Source: a virus. Taken from it: a DNA stretch of 21,444 nt. A program made the translations under genes and the position numbers. Positions 1-19,200 of the stretch are shown one piece after another. The notes under the pieces are model-generated. The model saw only the letters and a program-made list of their open reading frames with translations, searched no databases and was not told the DNA's origin. The stretch is from the UHGV virus genome UHGV-1982450; one strand, given 5' to 3'. The stretch's first letter is position 1. Each line of letters opens with the position of its first letter.

Positions 1-35
1 AAGGCCTTTGAATAAGACAAAAGGCTGCCTCATCG

Positions 36-218
36 CTAACTTTGCAACAGTGCCCTTTTATCTCTCATAACCACCAGCGTCGATGCCGCCGGAGATTGGT
101 ATTTGAATATTCTGGCCTGCGGTGCTGGCTTTGCCTCAGAGACAGGAATAGGACGAGATTGACATGCAGTGATAAGTAACGCGGAGGCAGCAACCAGAGG
201 AAGTAATACGTGTTTCAT
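36..218 (-). CDS. small putative lipoprotein (about 60 aa)
   Basis: Lies within ORF 36..254. The internal Met at 218 gives MKHVLLPLVAASALLITAC: a basic N-terminus, a hydrophobic core and the lipobox I-T-A-C. The upstream ATG (252..254) sits inside hairpin 253..272, so the 218 start is preferred. No family recognised. Confidence 0.45.
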   Translation of the reverse strand: MKHVLLPLVAASALLITACQSRPIPVSEAKPAPQARIFKYQSPAASTLVVMRDKRALLQS

Positions 219-252
219 TGTACCGAACAAAATCCTTATCTTTACGAAAATC

Positions 253-272
253 ATGGCGCCTCAAGGCGCCAT
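253..272 (-). terminator. candidate intrinsic terminator after the 92-aa ORF
   Basis: Perfect 8-bp stem ATGGCGCC / GGCGCCAT with loop TCAA. Read on the minus strand it is followed by GATTTTCG. It lies 6 nt downstream of the stop of ORF 278..556. Confidence 0.4.
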
Positions 273-277
273 AATGC

Positions 278-556
278 TCAATCGAGGCGTTTTAGAATAT
301 CGGCCAGATCTTCTTTGGTCATACCCGAGTTTTCGTAAATCTTCATGACCTTTTCACGAGCCTTTGCAGTAGTCTCTAATGACGTAGCTATCTTATCAAA
401 ATCACCCATCGTCATATTGGACAGCACCAGATTGATGATGTCTGCCTTTGACAGTTTTATGCTGCGTTCACGCAGTCGATTCTGAAAGGTCTCTAGTTTA
501 TCGTTTGCTTTTTCGGTTAACTGAACCTGGCAGTGTATAGCGCGTTTCTCGCTCAT
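278..556 (-). CDS. hypothetical 92-aa protein, coupled to the upstream helicase gene
   Basis: The ORF starts 3 nt after the helicase ORF ends (559), on the same strand. It is charged and helical in character. No motif recognised. Confidence 0.5.
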   Translation of the reverse strand: MSEKRAIHCQVQLTEKANDKLETFQNRLRERSIKLSKADIINLVLSNMTMGDFDKIATSLETTAKAREKVMKIYENSGMTKEDLADILKRLD

Positions 557-558
557 GC

Positions 559-2118
559 TTACTCTCTATTCAAAACAGTGAAATCGAATGTGCTGCCAAC
601 CGGCAAGACCCCCTCGGCAAACCCAGGCGTCGTGTCGATAATGTGTTTCCGCTCATATGAATGCGACATGAGGTATTTGTTGCTCACGTCGATGAAGTCG
701 GTAATAAAGCACACGTTAGCCTGATTCTTTTTGGCTCGAAGACCGCGACCCACACGTTGACGCATCTCCACTTCGGCTTTGCCGCCACCACCCAGAATCA
801 CCGCGCCTACGCTTGGAACGTCGACACCAACATCCAGAATGGTTGAACCAATGAGAACATCTATCTTGCCTGCCGCCAGACTATTAAGTTTTGCTTGTCG
901 GGTAGTCTGGTTTGATTCTCCGTAGATGAAATCGACCTTCAGGCCACTCTCTTTCATCATTTCCATCAAGATCTGACCATGACGCTTCAGACGAACCAAT
1001 GTCATACAGTTCAGACCGTGACTCTTGTACATTAGCGCTTCACGCACAATAGCTTCGTTGCGGCCCAGATTATAGACGATGCCTAACTGATAGGCTTTCT
1101 GGTAAGCCGTGCTCATTCCAACCCGAAAATTCAGGTGTTTTGAAGCAAGTTCGGCTCTAATCCGCGCCTCATCTGGAGTGTACGCGATTTTATGATATAA
1201 AAAGTATGGTTTCGCTAAAATACCTCTGTCGATCAAATATTTCTCCGTTACTTTTATCTCGATGCGACCCGCAACGGCCATGAGACGCATATTTGCTTCA
1301 GTCGAGTCCTTCATGAACGGCGTAGCTGTCAGCGCCAGACGGTAGTCGGCATTGATGCACAACCGGGCGATGTCGTAGAAGTTAGAACCAGATGATTCGT
1401 GTGCCTCTTCCAGAATCAGCAGAGAAACGCTGGACAGGAAGCGTTTAACCAGTTCCCGGCGCTTCAGGTGGTACTGTTTTTTCTCCGGTGATGCGTCGCG
1501 CGGTGGCTCTTCGAGAAAACTGGCCAGGGTCTGCACCGTGGCAACGTTGATATGGCGCGAGACCTGGAACTCACCCGATCCAATCACCCCAACTCTCTGA
1601 CCTTTCAGCCACGGCTCGCCATTCTCCGCGCGGTAGTCGATGGATTTCTGGAAGTTCTCTGCCATCTGGAACATCAGAACCGATCGCGTGGTTAAAAACA
1701 GCGTCATACGACCAATGCGAGCAGCAGCCTTACACGCTACGTTCGATTTACCGCCACCCGTCGCAATCTGGGCAATCATCATCCCTTCGCGCACCAGTGT
1801 TTCCACTGTCTGATCCTGATACGCGTAGTCCGGGTTATACGGGAATGGGTTAACCACCGGATTCGGCTTACCCAGCGCGGGAGCTTTTTCCTTGCGAACA
1901 TGCACGCATTTGATGCCAGCTTTCAGAAGATTGGTCGCAACTGGCTTCGCAAACCCAGCCGGGAACGCGTTTTTACTCCAGTTGAACATCGTGCTGGTCC
2001 CTTTCCAGTCACCAGCCTCCACTTCATAGCTCAACATCTCCTGAACAAGCCGTTTCACGTTGTCATCAGCGCCAGAAATCAGCGCATTGACTGCATTTGA
2101 TACAATCCGAACAGTCAT
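559..2118 (-). CDS. SF2 (DEAD/DEAH-like, ResIII/Helicase_C type) helicase
   Basis: Walker A is IATGGGKS, motif II is LILEEAH, motif III is LTATP and motif VI is QRVGRGLR. These occur in the canonical order in a 519-aa ORF. Confidence 0.85.
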   Translation of the reverse strand: MTVRIVSNAVNALISGADDNVKRLVQEMLSYEVEAGDWKGTSTMFNWSKNAFPAGFAKPVATNLLKAGIKCVHVRKEKAPALGKPNPVVNPFPYNPDYAYQDQTVETLVREGMMIAQIATGGGKSNVACKAAARIGRMTLFLTTRSVLMFQMAENFQKSIDYRAENGEPWLKGQRVGVIGSGEFQVSRHINVATVQTLASFLEEPPRDASPEKKQYHLKRRELVKRFLSSVSLLILEEAHESSGSNFYDIARLCINADYRLALTATPFMKDSTEANMRLMAVAGRIEIKVTEKYLIDRGILAKPYFLYHKIAYTPDEARIRAELASKHLNFRVGMSTAYQKAYQLGIVYNLGRNEAIVREALMYKSHGLNCMTLVRLKRHGQILMEMMKESGLKVDFIYGESNQTTRQAKLNSLAAGKIDVLIGSTILDVGVDVPSVGAVILGGGGKAEVEMRQRVGRGLRAKKNQANVCFITDFIDVSNKYLMSHSYERKHIIDTTPGFAEGVLPVGSTFDFTVLNRE

Positions 2119-2182
2119 AAACCTCTTTCCTTCGTGCCTTTTGTATGGTAATTGGCTATTATGTTAAGTAAGTGCTTACACA

Positions 2183-2611
2183 ATGTATCGTATCAAAAAT
2201 ATGGATGTGAAAATTACGATTCTACAGGTGGAAGTCGCGAACCTGCGTCCGAACCCCTGGAATACCAACTCCGTTGGGGCGCAAAACTTCGAAAAACTGA
2301 AAGGTTCCATCGAAAAGTTGGGCTTTTTTAAGCCAATTCTGGCGCGAGAGCTGGACGGCGGCATTTTTGAGATTCTCGGTGGCGAACATCGCTGGCGTGC
2401 CGCGATGGAGCAGGGCATTTCAACGGTTCCCGTCATCTCCGTGGGCAAAATTAACGACCTGGTGGCCAAACAGATGTTCCTCGTCGACAACGAGCGCTAC
2501 GGCGAAGACGATCAGGTCGCTTTGCAGCGCTTAATCGAAGAAATCCAGTCTGAAATCGACTACCGGTTACCCGAAACTGCTGCTGGCGCCTCGCCATCGC
2601 ATGTTTCCTAA
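2183..2611 (+). CDS. ParB-like nuclease (ParB N-terminal/sulfiredoxin-like) domain protein
   Basis: Contains the signature ILGGEHRWRAA (GxxR box of the ParB N-terminal domain), preceded by LRPNPWNTN. It is transcribed divergently from the helicase gene. Confidence 0.7.
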   Translation: MYRIKNMDVKITILQVEVANLRPNPWNTNSVGAQNFEKLKGSIEKLGFFKPILARELDGGIFEILGGEHRWRAAMEQGISTVPVISVGKINDLVAKQMFLVDNERYGEDDQVALQRLIEEIQSEIDYRLPETAAGASPSHVS

Positions 2612-3251
2612 GCTGAAGCCAACCACCAATACCACCGTGGCCAACCAGTATTGGGGGCGGTACGTGAACAACAACTTTGCGGTGATCAGCCGTTCCGTTG
2701 TGGACACTCAGTACCGCGGTGTCGGCGTCTCCTATCGAATGATTAACCTGGTTAGCAGGATGCACGACCGGCCAATCATCGAGATCCAGTCGTCGATGAG
2801 CAAATACAACCCGTTCGCCATGAAAGCAGGGTTCCAGTTCATCCGTCCGGAGCGTCCGAAGAGCTATGAGAGTGCGTTGCGCGTCTTCCAGCGTCATTTC
2901 CGTTCCGACCCTGGCGACAACGAAGCGATCGTCAAAGAGCTGTTTGCCATGAGTGAGTCTCGCCGTCGTCGTGCGCTGCGTGATCTGGTCGCTGACTACC
3001 ACAAGAACAGTTCCCTGGCCAAAGCCGGGCGTAATCGTGGCACGACGATTCAGGACATTGCCGACAGCCTGGTGGACGAGGCCAGCATCGTGAAGCTGCT
3101 CAAGGACATTCACAACCTGAGCTTCACGTCTCCGCTGTATGGCGTGTACCGAAACCCGGACTTTGGTCGTCAGCTGCCGGACACGCTGCCACTGCTGGCA
3201 TTCGACAAACAGCCTTTGAATAAACCTCTTGAAATTGCATTACCGGCATAA
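2601..3251 (+). CDS. hypothetical protein with a GNAT-like C-terminal half-fold near its N-terminus
   Basis: AVISRSVVDTQYRGVGVSYRMINL resembles GNAT motif A (Q/R-x-x-G-x-G/A). The following NPFAMKAGFQFI resembles the GNAT beta-strand region. Only about 30 residues precede motif A. The ORF overlaps the upstream gene by 11 nt in the +1 frame. Confidence 0.5.
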   Translation: MFPKLKPTTNTTVANQYWGRYVNNNFAVISRSVVDTQYRGVGVSYRMINLVSRMHDRPIIEIQSSMSKYNPFAMKAGFQFIRPERPKSYESALRVFQRHFRSDPGDNEAIVKELFAMSESRRRRALRDLVADYHKNSSLAKAGRNRGTTIQDIADSLVDEASIVKLLKDIHNLSFTSPLYGVYRNPDFGRQLPDTLPLLAFDKQPLNKPLEIALPA

Positions 3252-3260
3252 GGATTTGCC

Positions 3261-3527
3261 ATGACGTTGACCGACAAACAAAAAGACATCATCAAAACCA
3301 TCAATTTAGGCCATGAGCGTGGGCATCTGCTCGATCTGGACGAGCTGCTTGAAGTGCTGCCGTACAAAACGACCAAACAGAGTATGCAGTTCTCTATCCG
3401 CGCACTGGTGAAAAAGGGGCTGGTGGAGAAAGGAATGTGCCGCCAGCGCGGTGATTCCGGCTACCACCGTCGCACGCTGGGACTGACCACGTTAGGTCGT
3501 GCCAGAGCCAAATTACTGGTGATGTAA
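3261..3527 (+). CDS. small winged-helix (MarR/wHTH-like) DNA-binding protein
   Basis: 88 aa. QSMQFSIRALVKKGLVEKG followed by a basic wing (RQRGDSGYHRRTLGLT) is typical of a wHTH recognition helix plus wing. Confidence 0.5.
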   Translation: MTLTDKQKDIIKTINLGHERGHLLDLDELLEVLPYKTTKQSMQFSIRALVKKGLVEKGMCRQRGDSGYHRRTLGLTTLGRARAKLLVM

Positions 3528-3548
3528 GTCGGTCTGGGAGCCAGTTTG

Positions 3549-3611
3549 AGAGCCTGCTTCCGTATATATAAATACTAAGTGACTTATTAAATATATACGG
3601 AAGCAGGCTCT
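3549..3611. repeat. 63-bp palindromic hairpin element, copy 1
   Basis: Perfect 21-bp arms AGAGCCTGCTTCCGTATATAT (3549..3569) and ATATATACGGAAGCAGGCTCT (3591..3611). A 26-nt stretch, ACTTATTAAATATATACGGAAGCAGG (3582..3607), is identical to 11545..11570. Confidence 0.9.
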
Positions 3612-3644
3612 GAATACTCCCCAGCCCGGTTTTAAACACCCAGA

Positions 3645-3682
3645 AAACAAATTGGTTAGGCACTGAATTAAACAAGTTGTTT
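3645..3682. promoter_or_regulatory. tandem operator-like palindromes AAACAA-N-TTGTTT upstream of terS
   Basis: 3645..3657 is AAACAAATTGGTT (one mismatch) and 3670..3682 is AAACAAGTTGTTT (perfect). Both are followed by TAGG. The same motif occurs at 9514..9526 and 12443..12455. Confidence 0.55.
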
Positions 3683-3722
3683 AGGAGCGCAAGGATGCGC
3701 TCTGAGTGTTTTAGAGGGATCT

Positions 3723-4364
3723 ATGACTATAGAAAAAGACGAGAGCAAAACTCGCCTGACACCAGCTGAGTGGGCAGAAGCCGAAGCGAAGTGGACTTCC
3801 GGCGAATACACACTCTCCAAGCTGGAGGAAGAGTACGGCATTCGTCGTGAAACGCTCTCCAGACATTTCAAAAAGCGTGGATTAGAGAAAGGCGCGGACT
3901 CCGTTGGGAAGATGGTGCGCGAGTCGCTCAAATCCGACGCAGAGCTGCGTGCGAAGGCGCGTGCAGAGAAAATCGAAGAGCGCCGGACTCGTTACGACGA
4001 TTGGGCGTTCGCACTCGGTCGTATGGTGATGCATGAGGTGGCCATAGCCAAGAAGGACGGCAGGCCACTGGCAGCCATCGAAGATGACCTGAAGAGTCTC
4101 CAGCGTGCCAGCGGCACACTCGCTAAGTGCTTCGAAATATCGTCGAAAGCGCTCGGTATGGATCGCGTGGAGAACGAGGACGACGAAATCCCGAACCTGG
4201 TATTTGGCGAACTTACGCCTTCCCAGGTGGCGCAGCTGCGTAAGGAAGATGATGAGCCGGATCTGATTGATGACGATCTGCTTGAGTCACTCGAAGAGGA
4301 AGCACTGAGCGAAGCTGAGGGCGATTCTGAAGCGTCTGGTGATGAAAGTGATGGGAGCGTCTGA
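3723..4364 (+). CDS. terS: putative terminase small subunit
   Basis: N-terminal HTH-like segment (TLSKLEEEYGIRRETLSRHFKKRG) and a very acidic C-terminus. The stop lies 2 nt before the terL start. The call is mainly positional. Confidence 0.6.
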   Translation: MTIEKDESKTRLTPAEWAEAEAKWTSGEYTLSKLEEEYGIRRETLSRHFKKRGLEKGADSVGKMVRESLKSDAELRAKARAEKIEERRTRYDDWAFALGRMVMHEVAIAKKDGRPLAAIEDDLKSLQRASGTLAKCFEISSKALGMDRVENEDDEIPNLVFGELTPSQVAQLRKEDDEPDLIDDDLLESLEEEALSEAEGDSEASGDESDGSV

Positions 4365-4366
4365 CT

Positions 4367-5623
4367 ATGGCCATCCCGTCGTCTCTGAGTCTCGTACAGC
4401 TGCATTCTGGGCAGATGCAAGTCTTCCAGTCGCCACATCGTTTCAAAGTGGTGTGTGCGGGTCGACGCTGGGGTAAATCCCGGTTGTCGATCTCCACCAT
4501 CATCCGCGCGGCAGCCAAAGAGAAGAAGCAACGTGTCTGGTATGTCGCACCGACTTACCAGATGGCTCGCCAGATCTTGTGGGATGACCTGCAGGAAGTT
4601 CTGCCGCGCAAATGGGTTCGTAAGAAAAACGACACCACGATGACCATCGTGCTGAAGAACGGCTCTGAAATCGCGCTGAAAGGTGCGGATAAGCCCGATA
4701 CGCTTCGTGGTGTGGCACTGCACTTTGTGGTGCTCGATGAATTTCAGGATATGAAGCCTGACACCTGGTACAAGGTACTGCGTCCGACACTGTCCTCCAC
4801 CCGTGGCGGTGCGCTGATCATCGGTACGCCAAAAGGCTTCTCCGAGTTCCACAAGCTGTGGACTATCGGTCAGAACAAAGATTTGCAACGCAAGGGGCAG
4901 TGGAAGAGCTGGCAGTTCGTTACGGCCGATTCTCCGTTCGTACCGAGCGCGGAAATCGAAGCAGCGAAGAACGATATGGACCCTAAATCGTTCGCACAGG
5001 AATACCTGGCCAGCTTCGAAAACATGTCCGGACGCGTTTACTACCCGTTCGACCGCAATGTGCATGTGAAGCCACTCCAGTTCAATCCGAAACTGCCGAT
5101 CTGGGTTGGTCAGGACTTCAACATCGACCCTATGTCATCGGTCATCCTGCAACCGCAGCCAAATGGTGAACTGTGGGCTGTGGACGAATTGGTGTTGTTC
5201 TCTTCTAACACGGCTGAAGTGTGTGACGAGCTGGAGCGTCGATACTGGCGCTGGAAATCTCAGGTCACTATCTTTCCTGACCCGGCAGGTGCGTATCGCC
5301 AGCACGCACGCGGCGAATCTGACGTCGACATCTTCAAAGAGAAAGGTTTCCTTCGAGTCGATTATCCGAAGAAGCACCCGCCGATCGCAGACCGTGTTAA
5401 CGCAGTGAACCGCATGTTGATGAGTGCCTCGGGCGAAACCCGGTTGTACATCGATCCGAAGTGCAAACACCTCATCGACTCGCTGGAGAAGGTGATCTAC
5501 AAGCCAGGCTCACGCGATATGGATAAGACTGGCGGCATCGAACACAGTGCGGATGCGTTGGGTTATCCGGTTCATCGTAGGTATCCGGTGAAAAATCGTG
5601 TTATTCTTGGTGGATCTAGATAG
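4367..5623 (+). CDS. terL: terminase large subunit
   Basis: Walker A is VCAGRRWGKS and Walker B is HFVVLDEF. Size (418 aa) and position between TerS-like and portal-like genes fit TerL. Confidence 0.85.
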   Translation: MAIPSSLSLVQLHSGQMQVFQSPHRFKVVCAGRRWGKSRLSISTIIRAAAKEKKQRVWYVAPTYQMARQILWDDLQEVLPRKWVRKKNDTTMTIVLKNGSEIALKGADKPDTLRGVALHFVVLDEFQDMKPDTWYKVLRPTLSSTRGGALIIGTPKGFSEFHKLWTIGQNKDLQRKGQWKSWQFVTADSPFVPSAEIEAAKNDMDPKSFAQEYLASFENMSGRVYYPFDRNVHVKPLQFNPKLPIWVGQDFNIDPMSSVILQPQPNGELWAVDELVLFSSNTAEVCDELERRYWRWKSQVTIFPDPAGAYRQHARGESDVDIFKEKGFLRVDYPKKHPPIADRVNAVNRMLMSASGETRLYIDPKCKHLIDSLEKVIYKPGSRDMDKTGGIEHSADALGYPVHRRYPVKNRVILGGSR

Positions 5624-5638
5624 GTAAGTACTTACCTA
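5621..5638. promoter_or_regulatory. perfect 18-bp palindrome TAGGTAAGTACTTACCTA at the terL/portal junction
   Basis: It starts at the terL stop codon TAG and ends 18 nt before the portal ATG. Related copies lie at 11657..11674 (2 mismatches) and 2165..2182 (4 mismatches). Confidence 0.6.
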
Positions 5639-5656
5639 AGTGGAAAGGAAAATCAA

Positions 5657-7231
5657 ATGGAATTGACTGACAAGCAAATCAAAGACCTTGTGGCACGACG
5701 CCACCCTGAATATGAGAAGAAAAAAGAACATTGGGACTTCCTCGCCAGCACCTACGCTGGCGGGCGTGCCTGGTTCAACGACAATATCTTCCGTTACTTC
5801 AAAGAGGGCGATCAGGAGTTCAAAGAGCGCCTGGAACGCGCTTATCGCTTCAACCATACGCGCGAAGTGGTAAACCTCATCAACAAATACCTCTTCAAAG
5901 AGGTCATTCACCGCAACACTGATGAAGCACCGGAGCAGATCCGCAATTTCTGGAAGCGAGCCACGCGCCAGAACGCCTCCATCGATGCGTTTATGGCGGC
6001 TATCGATCTGCAATCATCCATTTATGGCCGTATCTGGGTTGTCGTGGATAGCACGATGAACGTCGATGTTGAGTCTGTTGCAGACGAGAAGAAAAATGAT
6101 GCGCGTGCCTACGCTTACTGGATTTCGCCGCAGCAGCTGCTTGATGTTGCCTGGGATGAAGACGGCAATATGTTGTGGGCGCTGATTGTTGAAATCGCGC
6201 GCGACGACGAAGATCCGTTCACTTCAACCGGGCAGGAATACCAGCGTTACCGTCTGTGGACGCAAAACGAGTGGTATCTGTTCCGTGAAGAAGTGAAGAA
6301 GGGTTCCGGAAATAGCGGTCGCCGTCAGGCCAAAGTCGTTCTGGAGGATAGCGGCCAGCATAATCTGGGCGTGGTGCCGGTGTTCCCGGTGGATTGCATT
6401 GGTGAAAGCGAGTCTCCGTATTTTAGCCCGTCGTTGATTGACGATATTGCCTATCTTGATCGCGCCGTGGCCAACTACCTGTCGAACCTTGACGCGATTA
6501 TTCAGGATCAGACATTCAGCCAGTTAGCGATTCCGGTTCAGTCCCTGCTGCCGGGCGATGAAAACCACACCAAAGTGCTCGAAATGGGGACAAAACGTGT
6601 CTTCACCTTCGATTCTGAGAGCGGTAATCAGCCATTCTATCTGTCTCCAGACCCGAAACAGGCTCAGATGATCATCACCACGATTAAGACGGTGATTAAT
6701 GAGATCTACCATTCCGTTGGTGTGGCTGGTGAGCGAACCAAGCAGGATAACGCGCAGGGTATCGACAACTCTTCGGGGGCAGCGAAGATGTACGACTTCC
6801 AACGTATTAACAGTCTGTTGGTGACAAAAGCAGAGCGCCTCGAAAGGGCAGAACGCCAAATGATGGAGTTGGCTGCGAAATGGATGGGCATCGAATTGGA
6901 TGAAGACCACTCTCTGATCGCTTACCCGGAGAGTTTCGATATTCGTGGTCTGACTGACGAATTTGCCGTCGCTGAGAAATTGTCGCTGTTACAGGCGCCT
7001 GATTCTGTACGTCGTCATCAGATGGAAATGCTCATAGAAAAGATCTTCCCGAATATTTCCGAAGCGATGCAAAAGGAATTTAAAAAAGATCTCTTGAAAT
7101 TTCCTCTAAAAAATGCTCCTGGCGCCCTTGAAAATAAGTCAGTACTTACTTATGATTGCGATACAGTCCAAGAAAGCGGACAAGATCAACCCCGAGGGAA
7201 TGGGGACTCATCTACTCAAGAGACCGAGTGA
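5657..7231 (+). CDS. putative portal protein
   Basis: 524 aa, immediately downstream of terL, with an RBS GGAAAGGAAA. The N-terminal pattern (ERLERAYRFNHTREVVNLINKYLF) resembles what I recall of DUF4055-type portals. Not verified. Confidence 0.6.
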   Translation: MELTDKQIKDLVARRHPEYEKKKEHWDFLASTYAGGRAWFNDNIFRYFKEGDQEFKERLERAYRFNHTREVVNLINKYLFKEVIHRNTDEAPEQIRNFWKRATRQNASIDAFMAAIDLQSSIYGRIWVVVDSTMNVDVESVADEKKNDARAYAYWISPQQLLDVAWDEDGNMLWALIVEIARDDEDPFTSTGQEYQRYRLWTQNEWYLFREEVKKGSGNSGRRQAKVVLEDSGQHNLGVVPVFPVDCIGESESPYFSPSLIDDIAYLDRAVANYLSNLDAIIQDQTFSQLAIPVQSLLPGDENHTKVLEMGTKRVFTFDSESGNQPFYLSPDPKQAQMIITTIKTVINEIYHSVGVAGERTKQDNAQGIDNSSGAAKMYDFQRINSLLVTKAERLERAERQMMELAAKWMGIELDEDHSLIAYPESFDIRGLTDEFAVAEKLSLLQAPDSVRRHQMEMLIEKIFPNISEAMQKEFKKDLLKFPLKNAPGALENKSVLTYDCDTVQESGQDQPRGNGDSSTQETE

Positions 7232-7253
7232 TAAGTAACGAAAAGGTATTTCT

Positions 7254-8021
7254 ATGAATCTGTGGCAAATGCTTATGGCCCGTCGTGGCCTGATGGATGT
7301 AGCCGAAGCGCATGAGCGCGGCGGCGCTGGTGGCGGTGCTCCTGCTGGAGACAATGAGCAGAGCATTCAAGACCCAGGCAAACAGGGCGAGCAAAAAGAG
7401 CAACCGAAGGGTGACGACGATGAGTATGCCGGTATGACTCAGGAAGAGTTGCTGGCAGAACTGCGTAAGTCTAAGAAAGCCGGTGCTGATCTGTTGAAAG
7501 AGAACATGAAGCGCAAGGAGAAAGAGCGCACATTGGCCGATCAGCTGGCTCAGTACGGTGATATTGACCCGACGCGTGCTCGTCAGCTTCTCGAAGCTGA
7601 ACAAGCCGCAGAAACCGCACGTCGGGAGGCGGAGCAGGCTGAACTGGAACGTCGTGGTGAGTTCGATGCTGTGAAAAAGCAGATGATCGAAGCACACCAG
7701 ACTGAACTGGCACAGCGCGACGAACGCTACTCCGCTCTGGAGAGCGAGAACGCCGCACTGAAGGCTCAACTGGTCGAAATGACTGTTGGTGTTTCCTTCA
7801 GCAGTTCTGCTTTCCTGCGTGACAAAGTTCTGATGACTCCGGCTATTGGCCTTGCACAAATTGCTGACGTTATGCCTCAAGTTTCTGCCGCAATGGATAA
7901 AGCGCAAGGCAATATCTCCAGTGGAGATACGGTACGCATCATCTTTGGCGTAGCTACCATTCTTGTGGCAGCATTCATTGCCTGGTCCCAGGTTCGCAAG
8001 CACCAGAAAGGATTAGTGTAA
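7254..8021 (+). CDS. coiled-coil, E/Q/A-rich protein with a C-terminal transmembrane helix
   Basis: Long heptad-like acidic segment (EQAAETARREAEQAELERRGE...) and a C-terminal hydrophobic stretch IIFGVATILVAAFIAWSQV. It occupies the scaffold position after the portal, but a TM anchor is atypical for a scaffold. Confidence 0.5.
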   Translation: MNLWQMLMARRGLMDVAEAHERGGAGGGAPAGDNEQSIQDPGKQGEQKEQPKGDDDEYAGMTQEELLAELRKSKKAGADLLKENMKRKEKERTLADQLAQYGDIDPTRARQLLEAEQAAETARREAEQAELERRGEFDAVKKQMIEAHQTELAQRDERYSALESENAALKAQLVEMTVGVSFSSSAFLRDKVLMTPAIGLAQIADVMPQVSAAMDKAQGNISSGDTVRIIFGVATILVAAFIAWSQVRKHQKGLV

Positions 8022-9242: not shown

Positions 9243-9513
9243 GTGTACCCCCTGATGGCCGGTGATGTAGGAAGGCCATCATTGCTCTCTATTTAAACTG
9301 AGTTTTCGACTCAAAGGTTATTTAACTGGGCTATAGCCCATTGCGTATGTGTCATCAAATTGTGTACGGCAATTTACCGTACTCGTAATATAGAGGTGAT
9401 TGTCACTTTTTTCAACAGACAAATGAAAACAGTTACTAGCAATAGGCAATAACAACCTACTAAATAACCTTTACACCGCAGCCGTAGGCATTTAGGCTAT
9501 ATCGCATATAAGA

Positions 9514-9526
9514 AAACAAGTTGTTT
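9514..9526. promoter_or_regulatory. operator-like palindrome AAACAAGTTGTTT over a putative parA promoter
   Basis: Perfect palindrome 36 nt upstream of the parA ATG. A candidate sigma70 promoter, TAGGCA (9485..9490) - N16 - TATAAG (9507..9512), ends 2 nt before it. Confidence 0.5.
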
Positions 9527-9561
9527 CATACGACAATAATTCACGCAAAGGAAACTCACCA

Positions 9562-10227
9562 ATGACCAAGATCATTGTGGTTGGCGGCACAAAAGGCGGC
9601 CCAGGCAAATCTACCGTTGCCCAGCAAATTGCGGTATGTCTCAAAGTTAAAAAGAAAAAGAAGGTTCACGTCACCGATATCGATATCCAGCGCACCACGA
9701 CCAGCTGGTGTGAAGACCGTCGCCAGAACGAAGATCTTGAACTGATCCCGTTCGCTTATGTGCAGGACGACATCGTCAAACATCTTAAATCGCTTCAGGG
9801 GCGAACTGATTATGTAGTGGTAGATGCTGGTGGCTTTGACTCCGAAATTCAGCGTCTGGCGATGCTTATGGCTGATGTAATCATCATCCCGCTGCGCCCT
9901 AAACGTCGTGATTTGAAATCTCTGCGTGATATCGACCCGATTATCGACAACGTTCGCAATGTGAACGAGAAAGTTAAGATCCGCGCGGTAATAAACCAGT
10001 GTCCGTCATTGCCTTCCCAGGTATCACGTATTCTGGCCGCGAAGGAAATTGTCGAAACTTTCGGCATCGAGGCTGCGCCGGTTAACCTGTACAACCGTAA
10101 CGTTTATGACGATGCGGAAGAGGCAGGTCGTTCTATCTTTGAAATGACTGGCGCTGAACGCGATAAGAAGGCAGAAGCCGAGTTCGAAGAGTTTGTAGAT
10201 TACATCTTGAGTCTGGAGGAAGAATAA
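9562..10227 (+). CDS. parA: ParA-family partition ATPase (small, type Ib-like)
   Basis: Deviant Walker A GGTKGGPGKST at the N-terminus. The protein is 221 aa and is followed by a 1-nt overlapping small RHH gene. Confidence 0.9.
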   Translation: MTKIIVVGGTKGGPGKSTVAQQIAVCLKVKKKKKVHVTDIDIQRTTTSWCEDRRQNEDLELIPFAYVQDDIVKHLKSLQGRTDYVVVDAGGFDSEIQRLAMLMADVIIIPLRPKRRDLKSLRDIDPIIDNVRNVNEKVKIRAVINQCPSLPSQVSRILAAKEIVETFGIEAAPVNLYNRNVYDDAEEAGRSIFEMTGAERDKKAEAEFEEFVDYILSLEEE

Positions 10228-10586
10228 TGTCCATGAGAATGGGAGACCTTGCAAAGCGCAATGAGCCTAAAGAACCGGCCAAAAGCAGCACTCCACTGCG
10301 CCAGCCAGTCAGACCGCAGGGGCGTCCGACTCGTGGCAAAGAGAAAATTAAAAGTCGCACAATGTCACTGGAAGACGAATACTTCGAACTGCTGGAGATG
10401 ATGAAGTTCATCCCTCGTTTCGAGAAGTTCACCCGTTCTGACGTGATTCGCGCTGCTATTTTCCATCTGGCAGAGAAGTCACCGCAGGAAATCGAGGACA
10501 TCGTGAAACTTAACGAGGCGATCACAGCTGCCGATGTCACGATGCGTACCGATGAAATCAAACGAGAGTTGATGAAGAAAGGTTAA
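10227..10586 (+). CDS. putative centromere-binding RHH protein (ParG-like partner of ParA)
   Basis: ATG overlaps the parA stop (TAATG). The N-terminal tail is basic and disordered. RTMSLEDEYFELLEMM...TRSDVIRAAIFHLAE fits a strand-helix-helix RHH fold. Confidence 0.55.
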   Translation: MSMRMGDLAKRNEPKEPAKSSTPLRQPVRPQGRPTRGKEKIKSRTMSLEDEYFELLEMMKFIPRFEKFTRSDVIRAAIFHLAEKSPQEIEDIVKLNEAITAADVTMRTDEIKRELMKKG

Positions 10587-10589
10587 AAA

Positions 10590-10624
10590 TTATGCATTGG
10601 CGCAATGTACGCGCCAATGCATAA
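10590..10624. terminator. bidirectional intrinsic terminator between convergent parG-like and GIY-YIG genes
   Basis: Perfect 14-bp stem TTATGCATTGGCGC / GCGCCAATGCATAA with loop AATGTAC. It is flanked by an A-run on the left. Confidence 0.65.
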
Positions 10625-10638
10625 GTACAGTGTCAGCT

Positions 10639-11406
10639 TTATGCCGCGCTAACACTATGTTCATTCCTAACCACCCCAACCTTCACAAAAGGGCTGCCGT
10701 AGCTTGGTGGCTTCTTGATTAATTTGCCTACATACAGTTTTCTAATATGCTCATCGGCTATTCTGCCAACAAATTCATAACGTTTTGTGTCGGGGCCAAG
10801 AGCTATATCCCTTGTAAAGTACTGCTGAGAACCGGCTTTGACCCAGCATTCAATCTGATAAACTTCCATTATCAGGCCCCCATATGTAGCGTAGGCATAT
10901 TTGAGATTCTCGTCTCTTGGAACCTTTGCCCATACGCCACGCGTAGCTTCATATAATGCCAGAGCGGACATTCCTGACTTGTAGGTGCTGTTTAGCAGGA
11001 AGGCAAGACCGGCGTGCTCAGGAGCAATTTCAGTTTCCTCTTGCAGCACTAAGTGATGGTAGGCGTCCAGTGATATTCTGCCCATCATGGAACCACTTCC
11101 TCGTACCTTATTCGTAAGCTCTCCGACCCCCATAAGGTCGATGCATGTCGCCTCAACAAGTTTGGCTGTGGTTTCATCCATACCATGACGAAGAATATCT
11201 ATGCCTAATTTTTTATTAGCCAAAAGTTCTTTGATCCGCATGGATTTGGGAGAGTCATCGGGATACTTGATGTGATCGAGACAACGAGTCGATTTGCCTT
11301 TTCCTATGTAAAACGGTCTTTTCATCTTGTCTTCTGTATCATAGAGACAGTAAACATAGTATTTAGCCTTATCCAATGATCTCGCGTATACCGATAAATC
11401 GTCCAT
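10639..11406 (-). CDS. GIY-YIG nuclease-domain protein with an uncharacterised C-terminal domain
   Basis: The N-terminus YYVYCLYDTEDKMKRPFYIGKGKSTRCLDH shows the GIY...YIG...R pattern. About 150 aa of C-terminal domain is not recognised. It is the only minus-strand gene in a plus-strand neighbourhood. Confidence 0.75.
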   Translation of the reverse strand: MDDLSVYARSLDKAKYYVYCLYDTEDKMKRPFYIGKGKSTRCLDHIKYPDDSPKSMRIKELLANKKLGIDILRHGMDETTAKLVEATCIDLMGVGELTNKVRGSGSMMGRISLDAYHHLVLQEETEIAPEHAGLAFLLNSTYKSGMSALALYEATRGVWAKVPRDENLKYAYATYGGLIMEVYQIECWVKAGSQQYFTRDIALGPDTKRYEFVGRIADEHIRKLYVGKLIKKPPSYGSPFVKVGVVRNEHSVSAA

Positions 11407-11517
11407 TATTGCATCTCTTAGCTACTGACTAATGCGTTCTATTTTACACATAAGTTTTTAATCAATTTTACAGGCTCAAAGTGTAGAGCTTCTGGGTGTC
11501 TAAGACGACAAGTTATG

Positions 11518-11570
11518 CCTGTTTCTGTATATAAATAATAAGTAACTTATTAAATATATACGGAAGCAGG
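11518..11570. repeat. 53-bp near-palindromic hairpin element, copy 2
   Basis: Arms are 11518..11543 and 11545..11570 (22 of 26 positions pair, 2 more as G:T). The right arm is identical to 3582..3607. It is immediately followed by the perfect palindrome GTCTTTTAAAAGAC (11570..11583). Confidence 0.9.
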
Positions 11571-11656
11571 TCTTTTAAAAGACACCCACCAGAACAACTC
11601 CCTTCCGTTTCCACTTCCCAAAAATATCTCCAGTCGCTATGATTCGCTCACTTAGA

Positions 11657-11688: not shown

Positions 11689-12414
11689 GTGAGCCAGATC
11701 TTCTTCAACACTATCGACAATGACCAGTACGATTTCATGACAGAGTGGAACACCGCAGTCATGGATAAGTGGGTAGCGGAGAACATTGGCCTGTCACGTT
11801 GCAAGGACGAGGCGGAACTGTTCGAAACCAAATGGTTTGACTATCGCGATATGCACCCGCTCATGGCCACATGCCTTTTCACTGAGGCATACAAGCGCCA
11901 GTACTCATACATCATGCTGTCGCATGGTCGTGAACACTATGAGACGGCTCCATTCACAACCGGTCTGAAGCGTGTGCCATATCAGGAGTTGTCGACTGCC
12001 AATAAAACGTCTCTATGGAAAGCACGCCAGTTTGCTGACCGCTATTGCTGCTCATACGACTACTTTATCTCCACCGTTCTTTCCGCAGCTGCACGACGGC
12101 TGTGGGACAAATTACCGCGCCCCCAGCATCTCTGGCAGCCCGAGTTGATCGATATATTCGAAGAGAAGTTAGCCAAACGCGCTGTAACCCGTCTGGATGA
12201 CTCTCTGGTGAGTTTTAAGCATCTTGGAGACATGCAGCGTGACCCGATTCAGGAACGCTATTTTGAGTGGATTCTGGAGCGTCTGCGTGGCATTACCCGA
12301 GATAAACGCATCCGTATCATCTTCTCCGCTGTCTGGTTGATGGAAATCGTGCCTGAGCGTGTGATTTACGCGCACTTCCCGGAAGAACTGGAAGAAGCAC
12401 GGCGATTCTGTTGA
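11689..12414 (+). CDS. hypothetical protein (241 aa), first gene of the replication block
   Basis: GTG start with AAAGGGAA upstream. Same strand as, and directly upstream of, the DnaB-like helicase gene. No motif recognised, so any loader or initiator role is only positional speculation. Confidence 0.45.
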   Translation: MSQIFFNTIDNDQYDFMTEWNTAVMDKWVAENIGLSRCKDEAELFETKWFDYRDMHPLMATCLFTEAYKRQYSYIMLSHGREHYETAPFTTGLKRVPYQELSTANKTSLWKARQFADRYCCSYDYFISTVLSAAARRLWDKLPRPQHLWQPELIDIFEEKLAKRAVTRLDDSLVSFKHLGDMQRDPIQERYFEWILERLRGITRDKRIRIIFSAVWLMEIVPERVIYAHFPEELEEARRFC

Positions 12415-12442
12415 TCCCCTATCTGGCTTTTTTAGTATTAGA

Positions 12443-12455
12443 AAACAAATTGTTT
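12443..12455. promoter_or_regulatory. operator-like palindrome AAACAAATTGTTT upstream of the DnaB-like gene
   Basis: Perfect palindrome 19 nt before the ATG at 12475. A candidate promoter, TTGATC (12411..12416) - N16 - TAGTAT (12433..12438), lies just upstream. Confidence 0.5.
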
Positions 12456-12474
12456 AAGCACCAAAGGAAAGCAC

Positions 12475-15229: not shown

Positions 15230-16216
15230 TTGTCGTTCTTTGGGGGAGAAGTGAACATTGTAGATGCTCTTGTTCTCAAGAAGTTAATGAGCGTTGGTGA
15301 TGAAACTGTTCTGTCAATCTTAAAGTTTTCAGCGTACAGCGGAGTGTCAACACTCGAAGAACTGGTAGTTAACTCCTCCAATCTGAAAATCTCAAATGGT
15401 AAATCTCGAGCAACTCTCGAAAGTTTCTTCGACGCTGCGAACTTCCAGGCTCTCAGGGACGAAGTAAAAACAGAGATTGATTCGTTCAAAAATAAAGGAG
15501 TTGAGATTGTTATCTTCGGTTCGAAAAACTATCCAATTTCGTTATATGATCTCCCGAAACCTCCACCCTTTCTTTACTGTAAAGGCAATCTAAATCTCTT
15601 AGAGAATAGGCTTTCATTAGCTGTTGTAGGAACTCGTGAAAACACCCCCAAGGGTGAAACCCTAACGATTAAAACTATTCAAAAGTTTGCGACTTATGGC
15701 TTCACGATAGTCAGTGGACTTGCACTGGGTATCGATACAATTGCTCATCGCGCGGCATTAGATGCCAAAACACCAACGATTTCTGTTCTTGTCGATGTGG
15801 AGTCTATTTCTCCCGCAAGTAATCGGGAACTCGCTAAGGAAATATTGGACGAGGGCGGACTTCTAGTTGCAGAGAATGCACCAGGAACCAAAGCAATACC
15901 TGCGTTCTTTGCTAAGCGAGACAGGATACAAGCAGGTTTATCTACTGCCGTCTTTGCTATTGAAACTTCGATAGATGGTGGGACGATGCACGCAGTCAAA
16001 TCTGCTATCTCTATGATGCGTCCTGTCTTCGTTCCTGACGTACATAAAGCTAAGTATCCAGATCTTACTATCAAGGCAATTTCAGGAACTCAACAGCTAG
16101 TTAACGAAGGGAGGGCGATACCATACACGAGCGAATCTTATGAAGATATTCGTCTTCAATTAGAAGATATCGCGAGTTCATTTGGGTCGTTGAAAGCAAA
16201 AGGTGGCCTGCTGTGA
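15230..16216 (+). CDS. DprA/Smf-family (Rossmann/SLOG-like) DNA-processing protein homologue
   Basis: The canonical DprA core runs YPISLYDLPKPPPFLYCKGN...LAVVGTRENTPKG...IVSGLALGIDTIAHRAAL...FFAKRDRIQAGLS...ETSIDGGTMHAV. The N-terminal part resembles the DprA SAM/HhH-like region. The track start is TTG (15230); GTG at 15251, after GGGGGAG, is an alternative. Confidence 0.85.
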   Translation: MSFFGGEVNIVDALVLKKLMSVGDETVLSILKFSAYSGVSTLEELVVNSSNLKISNGKSRATLESFFDAANFQALRDEVKTEIDSFKNKGVEIVIFGSKNYPISLYDLPKPPPFLYCKGNLNLLENRLSLAVVGTRENTPKGETLTIKTIQKFATYGFTIVSGLALGIDTIAHRAALDAKTPTISVLVDVESISPASNRELAKEILDEGGLLVAENAPGTKAIPAFFAKRDRIQAGLSTAVFAIETSIDGGTMHAVKSAISMMRPVFVPDVHKAKYPDLTIKAISGTQQLVNEGRAIPYTSESYEDIRLQLEDIASSFGSLKAKGGLL

Positions 16217-19200
16217 TAAAGGTCATCGTCCTCGATCTTGATGACACGCTTATTGATACATCAAGCCTCGAACCACTTCGGTTAGCTGGCCGATGGAGAG
16301 ACATACCCAGGTACTTTAATGGTTGTGTCATCAATCAGGACGTTGTCGGCCTTGTTACAACGGCTCGGTCGGTTGGAATCAAGGTTGCTATCTTCTCGAA
16401 TGCGCCTTCGAACTACGTTCAGGGGCTACTCAAACACTTCAGTATCACTGTTGATTATGTAGTAGCCTACCATGATGTAACGCAGCATAAGCCGAGCCCT
16501 GAGGGCGTTACTCGTATTCTCGAGTACTTCGGTGTTAGCGCCGACGAGTCAATTTATTTAGGAGATAGTAACCTAGATCGAGACGCTGCTTCCAATGCAG
16601 GAGTTGAGTTTTTCTCAGTAGATTGGGGTTCTGCCTCGGAGATCGATTCGTCACATAAGGGAATAAGCGGTCTCTCCGAGCTTATTGGAAAAAACTCGAC
16701 GCGGAGCTCCGCAAGAACTGGACGTTCTGAGTTAATACAATCTGGGAATAAACTTCATCTGGGATTCTATTTAGATGGTATCAAACAGGAAGTTTGGTCT
16801 TTCAAGGATAACAAGAATACTTCTGTTCGCCGCTGGGTTAACAAGACTGTTGAGCTAGCTTCTTCATTCCCAGCCATAGATATAGTTGTTCGAGCGTTAG
16901 GTCACGCTGAGCTTAGGGCTGAAGATGGCGATAAAGCATTAGATACCTTGGGCAAATCGCTGGCTGTTGCTTTAGGGGCTTCTTACCAACCTAAGATATT
17001 AGAGAAAGATCACGTATTAGATAAATCGACTAATTGCACTGCAGCACAAAGACTCCACCAGGTCAGAGGTGCCTATAAAGCCGATTTTGATTCAATAGAA
17101 GCTAATTCAAATCCGACATTTCTGATCATTGACGACGTATTAACTTCGGGGGCTACAACTGATGAGATAACACGCTGTCTATCTCAAGCTTTTCCGAATT
17201 CAAGTATTTACATTTTTACGTTGGTTAAAACTCTCTATAGATTGGAGCTATGCACTGACAGCCAAGAACAACAACACAATAACCAACTGTTTTCAGATTT
17301 GTACAACCCAATCATCGACTCGCTGGCGGACGAAAGTGAACTATCTAGACATGTCAGGTCGAAGTCTAGTAGCAGGCTTGTAAGCAAGAAGTTTTCTGCT
17401 AACTACGCGAGAACCAACCATAACTTCATTTTCCACAATCTTCTCCAGTATTCTATCTCGTCTGAAGCGGCGTCTGGACAGCTATTTGCAGCAATTCAAG
17501 TTCTTAAGAATATGCTTCAGAGAGGGAAGCCAACAATAGCCTCGCGGAAGCTGAGGAAGGCATTTGGCATTGAACTGGATCAGAACGTTCTTAATACACC
17601 AGCTCAGGCTCTTGTGTCAGATAAGCCGGTTTTTTGGAATAGATTGATTCGAGGCCACAAACAGTCAGGAAACTACCCAGCGAAAAGGTTTTTTGATGAG
17701 CTGATACCGAAGTATTTCGGTAAGTACATTTTTGTAAAACAACTAATGCTCCCTGAAGTCCAGATTTACGATATGACTCAGGTCTACGTTGAACAATTCC
17801 AGAACCGACAGGTAGATTTTTACATTCCTCAAGTTGGTTTAATTATTGAGATAGACGGTCAGCAGCACCAAAATTCTCAGCATTTAGATGAAATGAGGGA
17901 TGCGTTTACCGAAAGCCTGGGACTGAAGACTGTTCGATTCACTGTTCAAGAACTGGCATCTGAGAACCAGTCATTTATCAGTAAGATAAATTCGATTATT
18001 TCTCACATTCAGATCGTTGATGGTCTAGAGCGAAATGGTGTCCTAACGCCTCCTAATGGTATTTCTTTATTGAATTACCAAGAGGCTTACGAAAATGGAG
18101 TCGATGTTACTGACTCGCGATTGAGGCTGACCTCGGCGTTGCGTTTCCAGATACTGTTATTAGAGCTTCTTGAACGCGGTCAGATCAGACTAGGGGAGTT
18201 GAAAAAACTATTCATAGTCAATCGTGATGGAACTGATTTTGCTGAAGCGGCACTGGACGACCTGAACGATTTGTTATCGAATATCTTTCGTCTCATCGGC
18301 ATTGAAGAAAAGCGAATTGAGGTTGCGCTGATCGAATCAGATGAGCTTCCGAGCGAACGGTCTGGTGAAAATATATTCATCGACTTCAGCTTACTGGAGC
18401 GTTATGACGATTCCTTTCAAGTTAACCAAGACGTCATATATTCACGTACGGATTACTTCGATTTCTATCGAAACTTCGAAGATTCTGATGCTGTTTCAAT
18501 AGAAACCAGTCAATTGATTGACTATGACTTTTTTGAGCTTTCATGTAGTAACCCCATTACCTACAAGCTAGATCTTAGCCCAGGCAGCGAGCAGAGAGAG
18601 TCGCTGAGATACTTCCTCAGCAACCTGTTTCTACCATACCTAGAGGATGTAGATTTCAGGGAAGGGCAGGTTGGTATCATAGGATCTGCACTTTCGAAAA
18701 ACGGCACAATAGGATTGCTGCCTACAGGTTCGGGTAAGTCGATTTGTTACCAGCTGTCTGCGGTCCTGCAACCAGCCGTTAGCTTTGTCGTGTGCCCGAT
18801 AAAAAGTTTGATGTATGACCAGAAAGCAGATTTGGATAGCATCGGCTTCACTCGAAGCAATTTTATTACAAGTGATTTGAAGGCAGGAGAGAAGGCCAAA
18901 GTTCAGAGAGATTTCGGACGTGGTAAGTACTTCTTCGTTTTTATATCGCCTGAGCGATTCCAAACCCATGCGTTTAGAAAAGAGATGTTGGCTATCGGAC
19001 TAGATCTCTCATTTGCCTACGCGGTGATCGATGAAGCTCACTGTTTGTCTGAGTGGGGACATGATTTCAGGACTTCTTATCTGAACCTGGCAAATACAAT
19101 CGAACGGTTTGCTCCCAGTGCGAGTTATATAGGTCTAACGGCAACAGCATCAGTTAACGTCCTAAAGGATATTCAAACAGAGTTTGATATCCCAGATGAT

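Follow-up and report, generated by a model that had tools for sequence, protein, structure and literature searches.

The RNase III processing hairpins of phage T7 are long intergenic double-stranded RNAs that are repeated at gene-block boundaries and carry characteristic internal loops, and lambdoid phages have the RNA elements nut/boxB and put, of which boxB, a hairpin of 15 nt, is recognised by the N protein. The element analysed here, a large palindrome with an AT-rich centre, is compared with these systems as well as with intrinsic terminators. It is present twice in a 21,444-nt stretch of the virus genome UHGV-1982450 (this whole stretch is referred to as the window), as copy 1 at positions 3549–3611 and copy 2 at 11517–11571, and belongs to a family with three copies per genome, at sites designated A, B and C, in phage-plasmids related to Salmonella phage-plasmid SSU5. 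We consider it an even call whether the element represents family-specific sense-strand RNA hairpins, in three paralogous copies, serving as terminators or insulators between co-directional gene blocks. No description of it was found in the searchable literature on SSU5 palindromes, cos sites or termini, RNA-seq or the arm sequences.

The likeness to intrinsic terminators lies in a GC-rich stem base followed by a T/U-tract at sites B and C, in the position just after plus-strand genes and in the collapse of expression across the site B copy of a relative. Unlike them, the element has an unusually long and near-perfect stem (21–26 bp) with an AT-rich top, has the same sequence at three homogenised sites, has no U-tract at site A and, in distant lineages, has centres of 45–100 nt. 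By analogy it may be likened to the T7 hairpins, which are also intergenic, at least 20 bp long, confined to one strand, placed at gene-block boundaries and mutually similar, although the T7 sites have internal loops whereas the stems of the present element are nearly perfect. A comparable analogy may be drawn with the nut/boxB and put elements, as near-identical RNA hairpins of lineage-specific sequence at the start of long operons; however, boxB is only 15 nt in length, and SSU5-like elements are not known to encode a protein like N or Q.

The palindromes of the window and their family

Copy 1 (site A, plus strand) is an inner palindrome with arms AGAGCCTGCTTCCGTATATAT / ATATATACGGAAGCAGGCTCT and no T-tract after it. 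As the original prediction, made from the window alone, had stated, its 21-bp arms (3549–3569 and 3591–3611) are perfectly complementary and enclose an AT-rich centre of 21 nt; the arms can moreover be extended to 24 nt at 96% complementarity (3546–3569 and 3591–3614), and the centre is itself near-palindromic. Outer inverted-repeat motifs on the plus strand lie at 3531–3540 (GGTCTGGGAG) and 3617–3629 (CTCCCCAGCCCGG) and pair with each other in the predicted minimum free energy fold, the left one recurring in the A and C copies and in many copies of site B. Copy 2 (site B, plus strand) is a near-palindrome, likewise as predicted, of the form GCCTGTTTCTGTATATAAATAATAAGT-A-ACTTATTAAATATATACGGAAGCAGGT, with two arm mismatches, both of them G·T on the plus strand and thus G·U in the plus-strand RNA. 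Directly after the hairpin follows the T-tract TCTTTT (11571–11576, plus strand), a terminator-type tail kept at sites B and C, and the outer inverted motifs of this copy are located, again on the plus strand, at 11490–11501 (TTCTGGGTGTCT) and 11580–11594 (AGACACCCACCAGAA).

The 26-mer ACTTATTAAATATATACGGAAGCAGG, shared by both copies and held from the outset to be beyond chance, occurs exactly twice in the window and was never matched in 100 shuffles; the repeat in fact covers 43 nt with 95% identity (3565–3607 versus 11528–11570). For the 14-nt arm motif TATACGGAAGCAGG there are four occurrences where 0.06 would be expected. Folding, which had been proposed as a check, gave values far better than those of shuffled sequence for both copies, i.e. 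−52.5 kcal/mol (z = −10.2) for copy 1 as RNA and, for copy 2, −28.2 kcal/mol (z = −6.5) on the plus strand versus −20.9 kcal/mol (z = −2.8) on the minus strand, with z = −11.0 and −6.9, respectively, for the DNA folds. An Rfam scan of the whole window yielded no family, only chance-level matches to miRNA precursors on the palindrome (about 25 bits versus gathering scores of 60–84, E about 0.3). A simple terminator scan called neither copy; its loop and stem limits probably exclude long interrupted stems, so that its silence is uninformative. Both copies are intergenic and stand ahead of major plus-strand modules, in agreement with the first description; copy 1 begins 21 nt past the stop codon of the plus-strand open reading frame (ORF) 3261–3527 and 112 nt separate it from terS downstream.

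The window is 100% identical to Escherichia coli plasmids (e.g. NZ_CP067400) and piecewise colinear with SSU5, positions 55–2574 corresponding to SSU5 97688–100208, 2567–3589 to 102277–103299 and 3590–7845 to 1–4255, while beyond 7845 the match jumps to about 28.4 kb of SSU5 and then to 30.4–31.5 and 33.5–37.0 kb. This piecewise colinearity identifies the window plasmid as an SSU5-like phage-plasmid derivative from which the capsid, the tail and most lysis genes have been lost by deletion. SSU5 itself contains exactly three copies of the element, namely A ahead of terS, where the ends of its linear record meet, B at 33451–33513, before SSU5_038, a DnaB-like helicase and a primase, and C at 78294–78362, after a Dam-like methyltransferase. 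At each site the element starts about 20 nt past a plus-strand stop codon and ends about 110–120 nt before the next plus-strand start. Copies A and B of the intact SSU5 are 33 kb apart; the earlier remark that the two copies bracket the region 3.6–11.5 kb hence describes an effect of the deletion, and a third copy exists.

The comparison with related phage-plasmids, suggested along with the original prediction, revealed conservation at three fixed sites. The IMG/VR loci were retrieved via flanking proteins and not via the element itself. Across 80 loci obtained via TerS, the site A elements lie 100–117 nt upstream of terS (78 nt or less where the called arms extend outward), and for site B the distance to the SSU5_038 homologue downstream is 105–121 nt in almost every one of 80 loci. 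The three sites are occupied in nearly every SSU5-clade genome, and the same three were seen in the 21 IMG/VR genomes examined. A possible inverted orientation of site C was dropped, having been suggested by a single sub-lineage and corrected by the unbiased retrieval. In PLSDB the element is present in 800 plasmids, mostly of about 100–130 kb and non-mobilizable, from Klebsiella, Escherichia, Enterobacter, Yersinia, Salmonella, Citrobacter and Cronobacter, and none of the 40 PLSDB records listed has an annotated feature beneath the match. Judged by annotation, the three sites would separate a packaging, structural and lysis group, a replication and nucleotide-metabolism group, and a group of small genes together with regulators.

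The arms CCTGCTTCCG / CGGAAGCAGG are nearly invariant among 68 unique elements. Copies within one IMG/VR genome share lineage-specific variants: the centre 'taaataataaat...' is common to all three copies of genome 2880329822, the rare arm variant CCTGCTTTCG to B and C of genome 2600255169, and the 55-nt cores of A and B are identical in genome 149282.

Proposed sense-strand hairpins between gene blocks

Among the first 9–10 nt after the arm, the mean T count is 5.4–5.6 at sites B and C and 3.0 at site A, the T-rich tails of B and C being TCTTTTT, TCTTTTAAA, CTGTTTTGT and CTTTTTAAG. When 14 arm pairs were compared over 71 unique elements retrieved via the flanking proteins, 901 pairs were unchanged Watson–Crick pairs, 13 were compensated and 50 were G·U on the plus strand, with 12 A·C pairs (G·U only on the minus strand) and 18 other mismatches. 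Arm position 9 runs through the series C-G (21), U·G (32) and U-A (11) versus C·A (7). Most B copies fold 3–8 kcal/mol better as plus-strand RNA, and the conserved orientation is seen from TATAAATA in the centre, which 38 elements have on the plus strand alone and 5 on the minus strand alone.

Plasmid pLF82 of E. coli LF82 is the SSU5-like prophage Cyrano, for which RNA-seq of the lysogen is given in S1 Table of the corresponding study (PMC9928086). Expressed as gene-level normalised counts, which come from a relative and are not a mapping of 3' ends, the plus-strand ParA operon CYRAN_28/29/30 has values of 50/89/55, and CYRAN_31, located after the B hairpin, has 6.2 at a floor of 5; in another condition the log2 value decreases from 10.4 to 2.6 across the B copy, the fall being up to about 200-fold (PMC9928086). 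The 193-nt gap contains the hairpin GACCTGCTTCTGTATATA...TATATACAGAAGCAGGTC, then TTTTAAAG, with TTTT after the hairpin, and no other comparable palindrome was seen in it by eye. Copy B is positioned directly after plus-strand genes in SSU5, in Cyrano and in most relatives. Termination at the hairpin would account for the drop in Cyrano. A terminator role had been dismissed in the original prediction; that judgement does not hold for the site B family, which always has a T-tract, mostly follows plus-strand genes and, in Cyrano, coincides with the collapse of expression. For site A, the only hint from the same data is a terS signal 2–4-fold below that of the 88-aa gene preceding it in macrophage samples (PMC9928086).

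The sense-strand hairpin would thus comprise 21–26 bp, GC-rich at the base (CCUGCUUCCG / CGGAAGCAGG) and AU-rich towards the top. Site A would precede the packaging and structural block and site B the helicase/primase and DNA-metabolism block, and site C would follow the Dam-like methyltransferase and precede a block of small genes and immunity genes. Since a U-tract follows at B and C, the copies at these sites may act as intrinsic terminators, by which the silent lytic block would be shielded from transcription of upstream genes. Copy 1, and site A in general, could be a barrier ahead of terS that is leaky or depends on a factor, or else a hairpin for processing or stabilisation. The near-identity of copies within a genome would be kept by gene conversion, by a shared trans-acting factor or by both. 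A regulatory RNA hairpin, one of the candidates named at the start, comes close to this reading.

The element can be followed into more distant lineages. Klebsiella oxytoca plasmid pCAV1099-111 (TerS 62% identical) has the motif ATCCAGAGCA(A/C)GG at the same three places, where its hairpins are weak. In its B region, 60 nt nearly identical to the right half of the C site of this plasmid are followed by a canonical terminator and then by the degenerate B palindrome; the 60-nt copy is a trace of ectopic recombination between copies. Xenorhabdus szentirmaii, Xenorhabdus hominickii and Morganella (TerS 56–57% identical) also have palindromes at A and C, the arms of which differ from those of the SSU5 clade yet complement each other, such as GCCTTGCTCCCATA / TATGGGAGCAAGGC and AAGCCGTGTTCCCATA / TATCGGAGCACGGCTT, and their C copies form strong hairpins (z = −6 to −12). 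The arms thus appear to change in step on both sides between lineages, and the presence of palindromes with other matching arms at A and C indicates that palindromy and position are old. Site A carries T-runs in some of these lineages, with T8 in K. oxytoca and T4 in two Xenorhabdus species. Scanning IMG/VR with a 14-mer of the Xenorhabdus-type arm gave almost only chance matches and did not recover the B site of that lineage, and in Acinetobacter relatives (33% TerS identity) no recognisable counterpart was found upstream of terS.

Several observations weigh against hairpins of the terminator type. The U-tract is missing from every A copy in the SSU5 and Klebsiella lineages; its absence from copy 1, noted correctly in the original prediction, thus holds for site A clade-wide. 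Covariation within the clade, where the arms hardly vary, is not significant, the observed values being reached in 71, 56 and 61 of 500 shuffles, and the excess of G·U is a count of sequences and not of independent events. In K. oxytoca, ordinary terminators stand beside the degenerate B and C copies. The C hairpin of Morganella is better on the minus strand (−39.7 versus −29.6 kcal/mol), and the C copies of Xenorhabdus and Morganella have no T-tract, their AT-rich centres of 45–100 nt being atypical of terminators. In the lysogen of Cyrano both sides of A and C are silent, so that the RNA-seq is uninformative there. Within the window, nothing obvious transcribes into copy 2, and the neighbouring gene 10639–11406 is on the minus strand. 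The divergent context described for copy 2 is specific to this plasmid and due to an inserted minus-strand gene for a GIY-YIG nuclease, absent from SSU5, and copy 2 in the window looks like an inherited element without an incoming transcript.

Finally, GGRAGCA(N)GG remains recognisable across lineages whose remaining intergenic DNA is unalignable. Neither this deep conservation nor the homogenisation within genomes is needed by a plain terminator, and together they keep a DNA- or RNA-binding factor in play. It is conceivable, if rather unlikely, that the three palindromes are the cis sites of a dedicated switch in which one factor of the phage-plasmid reads the same hairpin or duplex at all three block boundaries. 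Candidates would be an antiterminator or terminator that binds RNA and, at the DNA level, the conserved 88-aa protein with its predicted winged helix; by controlling passage of transcription from one temporal block to the next, the factor would couple silence in the plasmid state to lytic development.

Alternative readings of the palindromes

The GC-rich arms could instead be inverted half-sites for a phage-plasmid protein, binding of which at the three boundaries would create an operator, a roadblock of the 'stoperator' kind or a looping site coordinating the blocks. This possibility, which we regard as doubtful, draws on the arm motif, which outlasts the surrounding intergenic DNA as CGGAAGCAGG in the SSU5 clade, CCAGAGCA(A/C)GG in K. 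oxytoca and TGGGAGCA(A/C)GG in Xenorhabdus and Morganella, on paralogues that have the same arms within one genome while lineages differ, and on the distant lineages being without a consistent strand preference. A candidate protein is at hand in the product of the 88-aa ORF (3261–3527, plus strand), which ends 21 nt before copy 1 and adjoins site A, upstream of terS, in every lineage examined. It was called a winged helix-turn-helix protein in the original prediction, and the predicted structure (pLDDT 86) agrees, being a MarR/PadR-like winged-helix fold with Foldseek TM scores of 0.70–0.76 to MarR, MepR and AF1382; the protein has no Pfam match (phrog_900) and the PDB sequence search was empty, only the fold comparison being informative. 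The predicted recognition helix KQSMQFSIRAL is nearly invariant among the aligned homologues and, by translation by eye, apparently unchanged in the X. szentirmaii ORF, and the arm core AGCA..GG is conserved too.

Reuse of one sequence at several intergenic sites of a prophage or plasmid-prophage has parallels in the P1 C1 operators, the 'stoperators' of mycobacteriophage L5 and the dispersed centromeres of N15, and by this analogy may suggest a single trans-acting factor. Those sites are, however, short (13–17 bp) and numerous, whereas the present element amounts to three palindromes of 55–65 bp with variable centres. Depending on the extent of pairing in the centre, the spacer is 1–35 nt within the clade, with the GC-rich cores 25–35 nt apart, and arm spacing, 21–35 bp within the clade, reaches 45–100 bp in Xenorhabdus and Morganella; there is thus no fixed half-site spacing, and the variation is hard to reconcile with a simple dimer site. 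A symmetric site would also leave the sense-strand G·U bias, the T-tracts of B and C and the polarity unexplained. Furthermore, the winged-helix gene is at background in the Cyrano lysogen, yet expression already falls across B (PMC9928086).

It is improbable that the palindromes are lytic replication origins or structure-forming initiation sites, with the AT-rich centre as the unwinding element and inverted recognition sequences on either side of it. The analogy would be with the palindromic oriS/oriL of herpes simplex virus or with plasmid ssi hairpins used by an element-specific primase, and it accommodates GC arms around an AT-rich centre of variable length in three copies per genome, the location of copy B directly upstream of the helicase/primase operon, the very stable DNA hairpins (z = −11 and −7) and the palindromic form kept without strand preference in distant lineages. 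The plasmid replicon (RepA/RepB, with its own region) nevertheless lies elsewhere, we know of no initiator, and an origin would not explain the T-tracts, the constant placement after stop codons or the fall in expression at B.

A further proposal, compatible with termination, is that the elements are recombination-prone 'regulatory cassettes', each made up of a hairpin and a control region downstream of it, with the repeated copies used mainly as breakpoints for cargo exchange, for which we see little likelihood. At site B the right flank is conserved and the left flank hypervariable, the variable DNA often starting a few bases from the left arm or at the outer TCTGG motif, with the GIY-YIG nuclease gene at this place in the window and other genes in SSU5. 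Recombination between copies would fit both the C-derived 60-nt segment in the K. oxytoca B region and the identical rare arm variants in B and C of one genome. In these respects the element may be compared with the PeSL 'mobile regulatory cassettes' of T4-type phages, which are promoter and stem-loop repeats flanking variable genes, in so far as a repeated stem-loop unit stands at the edge of hypervariable cargo and shows signs of recombination between copies; unlike PeSL, the copies number only three and keep to fixed, deeply conserved positions. In the genomes examined, variable regions do not adjoin site A or site C, the end points of the large deletion in the window are not at palindromes, and recombination may be a side effect of repeated sequence.

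That copy 1 is a cos or pac site recognised by the terminase, or part of one, was among the earlier candidates and is now very improbable. It lies 112 nt upstream of terS, and position 1 of the SSU5 GenBank record NC_018843 corresponds to window 3590, 1 nt before the right arm, while position 1 of the Cyrano record OV696614 corresponds to window 3591, 1 nt from the SSU5 start. There are, however, three near-identical copies in SSU5 and in 21 other genomes, only A being beside terS, and these repeats are also where many IMG/VR contigs stop, which is what assembly breaks at a repeated palindrome would produce. The terminase large subunit TerL best matches Terminase_6N and Terminase_3, families seen more with headful packaging than with cos packaging of the lambda type. 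Cyrano, which is the plasmid pLF82, is shown in a whole-genome comparison with SSU5 (PMC9928086), from which we infer that its record was oriented to match. The starts of both records probably reflect assembly or orientation convention and are not proof of physical ends; a literature search found no paper on a cos site or the genome ends of SSU5.

Dispersed plasmid centromeres bound by ParB-like proteins, as in the phage-plasmid N15, are hardly credible. The elements are palindromic and dispersed, with ParB-N domain genes upstream of copy A and a ParA gene upstream of copy B, but sopC-type sites are 16 bp and the arms and spacing seen here are unlike them. The ParA is of the short form, its 119-aa neighbour is without a recognisable domain, and the Yersinia pestis pMT1 records listed show two matching places each, read as one palindrome on both strands. 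Moreover, the lysogen, in which partition must operate, expresses the two ParB-like genes CYRAN_119 and CYRAN_120 only at background level, with values of 5.0 and 9.5 (PMC9928086). Likenesses of the arms noted by eye to loxP (CTTCGTATA; wrong geometry, no 8-bp spacer and no universal tyrosine recombinase in the SSU5 annotation), to T7-type promoters (TATAGGGAGA; no single-subunit RNA polymerase listed in that annotation) and to DnaA boxes and T4 late promoters (TATAAATA; wrong geometry and no matching enzyme annotated) were set aside.

Neighbouring features and biological meaning

The first gene downstream of copy 1 (3723–4364, plus strand) encodes a terS-like DNA-binding protein annotated in Cyrano as the small terminase subunit. 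Its leader contains two copies of a 17-bp palindromic motif, GAAAACAANTTGTTTWA, often preceded by TWAACNCCAAYAA, which is found in the window at 3643–3659, 3668–3684, 9512–9528 and 12441–12457. The weaker similarity downstream of the palindromes that the original prediction had attributed to the element (ACACCCAGAAAACAA) is part of this separate and far more abundant motif. SSU5 has 19–26 such sites, 6–8 times more than shuffled sequence, and the usual place is 10–20 nt before a plus-strand start codon; the motif could be a candidate operator or translational control site, and it resembles the target of T4 RegA, which we take to be AAAUUGUU. The two motif copies are followed by a small hairpin (3684–3703), by GTGTTTTAGA to 3713 and by the terS ribosome-binding site. 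This hairpin is kept across lineages with a conserved AAGGA loop and compensatory changes in the stem (GAGCGC/GCGCTC, GAGCAC/GTGCTC, GGTGCA/TGCACC, CGGCGC/GCGCCG and GGCGTC/GATGCC), and it looks like an attenuator or translational control element. With two 17-bp motifs, the small hairpin and GTGTTTTAGA ahead of terS, the leader is therefore a composite control region.

The homologue of SSU5_038 (11689–12414, plus strand) opens the helicase/primase block that follows copy 2. Between copy 2 and this replication operon, outside the palindrome, a sigma-70-like promoter match, TTCCCA-17-TATGAT, is located at 11615–11643 on the plus strand; it is a consensus match only, and inspection by eye shows comparable paired hexamers in SSU5 and K. 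oxytoca. The minus-strand gene 10639–11406, within the hypervariable flank to the left of copy 2, codes for 255 aa with a LEM-3-like GIY-YIG nuclease domain (Pfam E = 5.5e-07) and may be a free-standing homing-type nuclease gene. Between this gene and the convergent plus-strand gene 10227–10586, a perfect hairpin with 14-bp arms and a 7-nt spacer (10590–10624) is the top minus-strand match of the terminator scan and probably a bidirectional terminator.

As regards the remainder of the window, SSU5 4256–28406 is absent, with the junction at 7840–7850, and the window plasmid is probably unable to form virions because the SSU5 capsid, tail and most lysis genes are gone. About 2 kb of SSU5 is also lost at window 2183–3251 as compared with SSU5 100209–102276, comprising part of a ParB-like gene, a second ParB-like gene and ABC-ATPase-like genes, which has left a shortened ParB-N ORF of 142 aa fused beside a truncated ATPase-like ORF. 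A 1558-aa ORF (16213–20889), RecQ-family or helicase-related in the annotation of the matching plasmids, lies beyond the last stretch of the window alignable to SSU5 and is probably accessory cargo.

What is new here is the occurrence of a terminator-type hairpin as a homogenised three-copy family at the module boundaries of a large group of phage-plasmids. Should the element be only a terminator, it would be a useful annotation and no surprise; it is ordinary unless a dedicated factor reads it. The switch considered above, if true, would operate in about 800 known plasmids, including Y. pestis pMT1 and Salmonella Typhi pHCM2. The element also marks a place of cargo insertion, the left flank of site B, and the repeated palindrome explains why assemblies and database records of SSU5-like elements tend to break there. 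SSU5-like phage-plasmids are common in Escherichia, Klebsiella, Salmonella, Enterobacter and Yersinia, and phage-plasmids have been reported as carriers of resistance genes. The literature searched was almost silent on how SSU5-like elements keep their lytic genes off while they persist as plasmids, and a conserved signal at the block boundaries would provide testable landmarks for this regulation.

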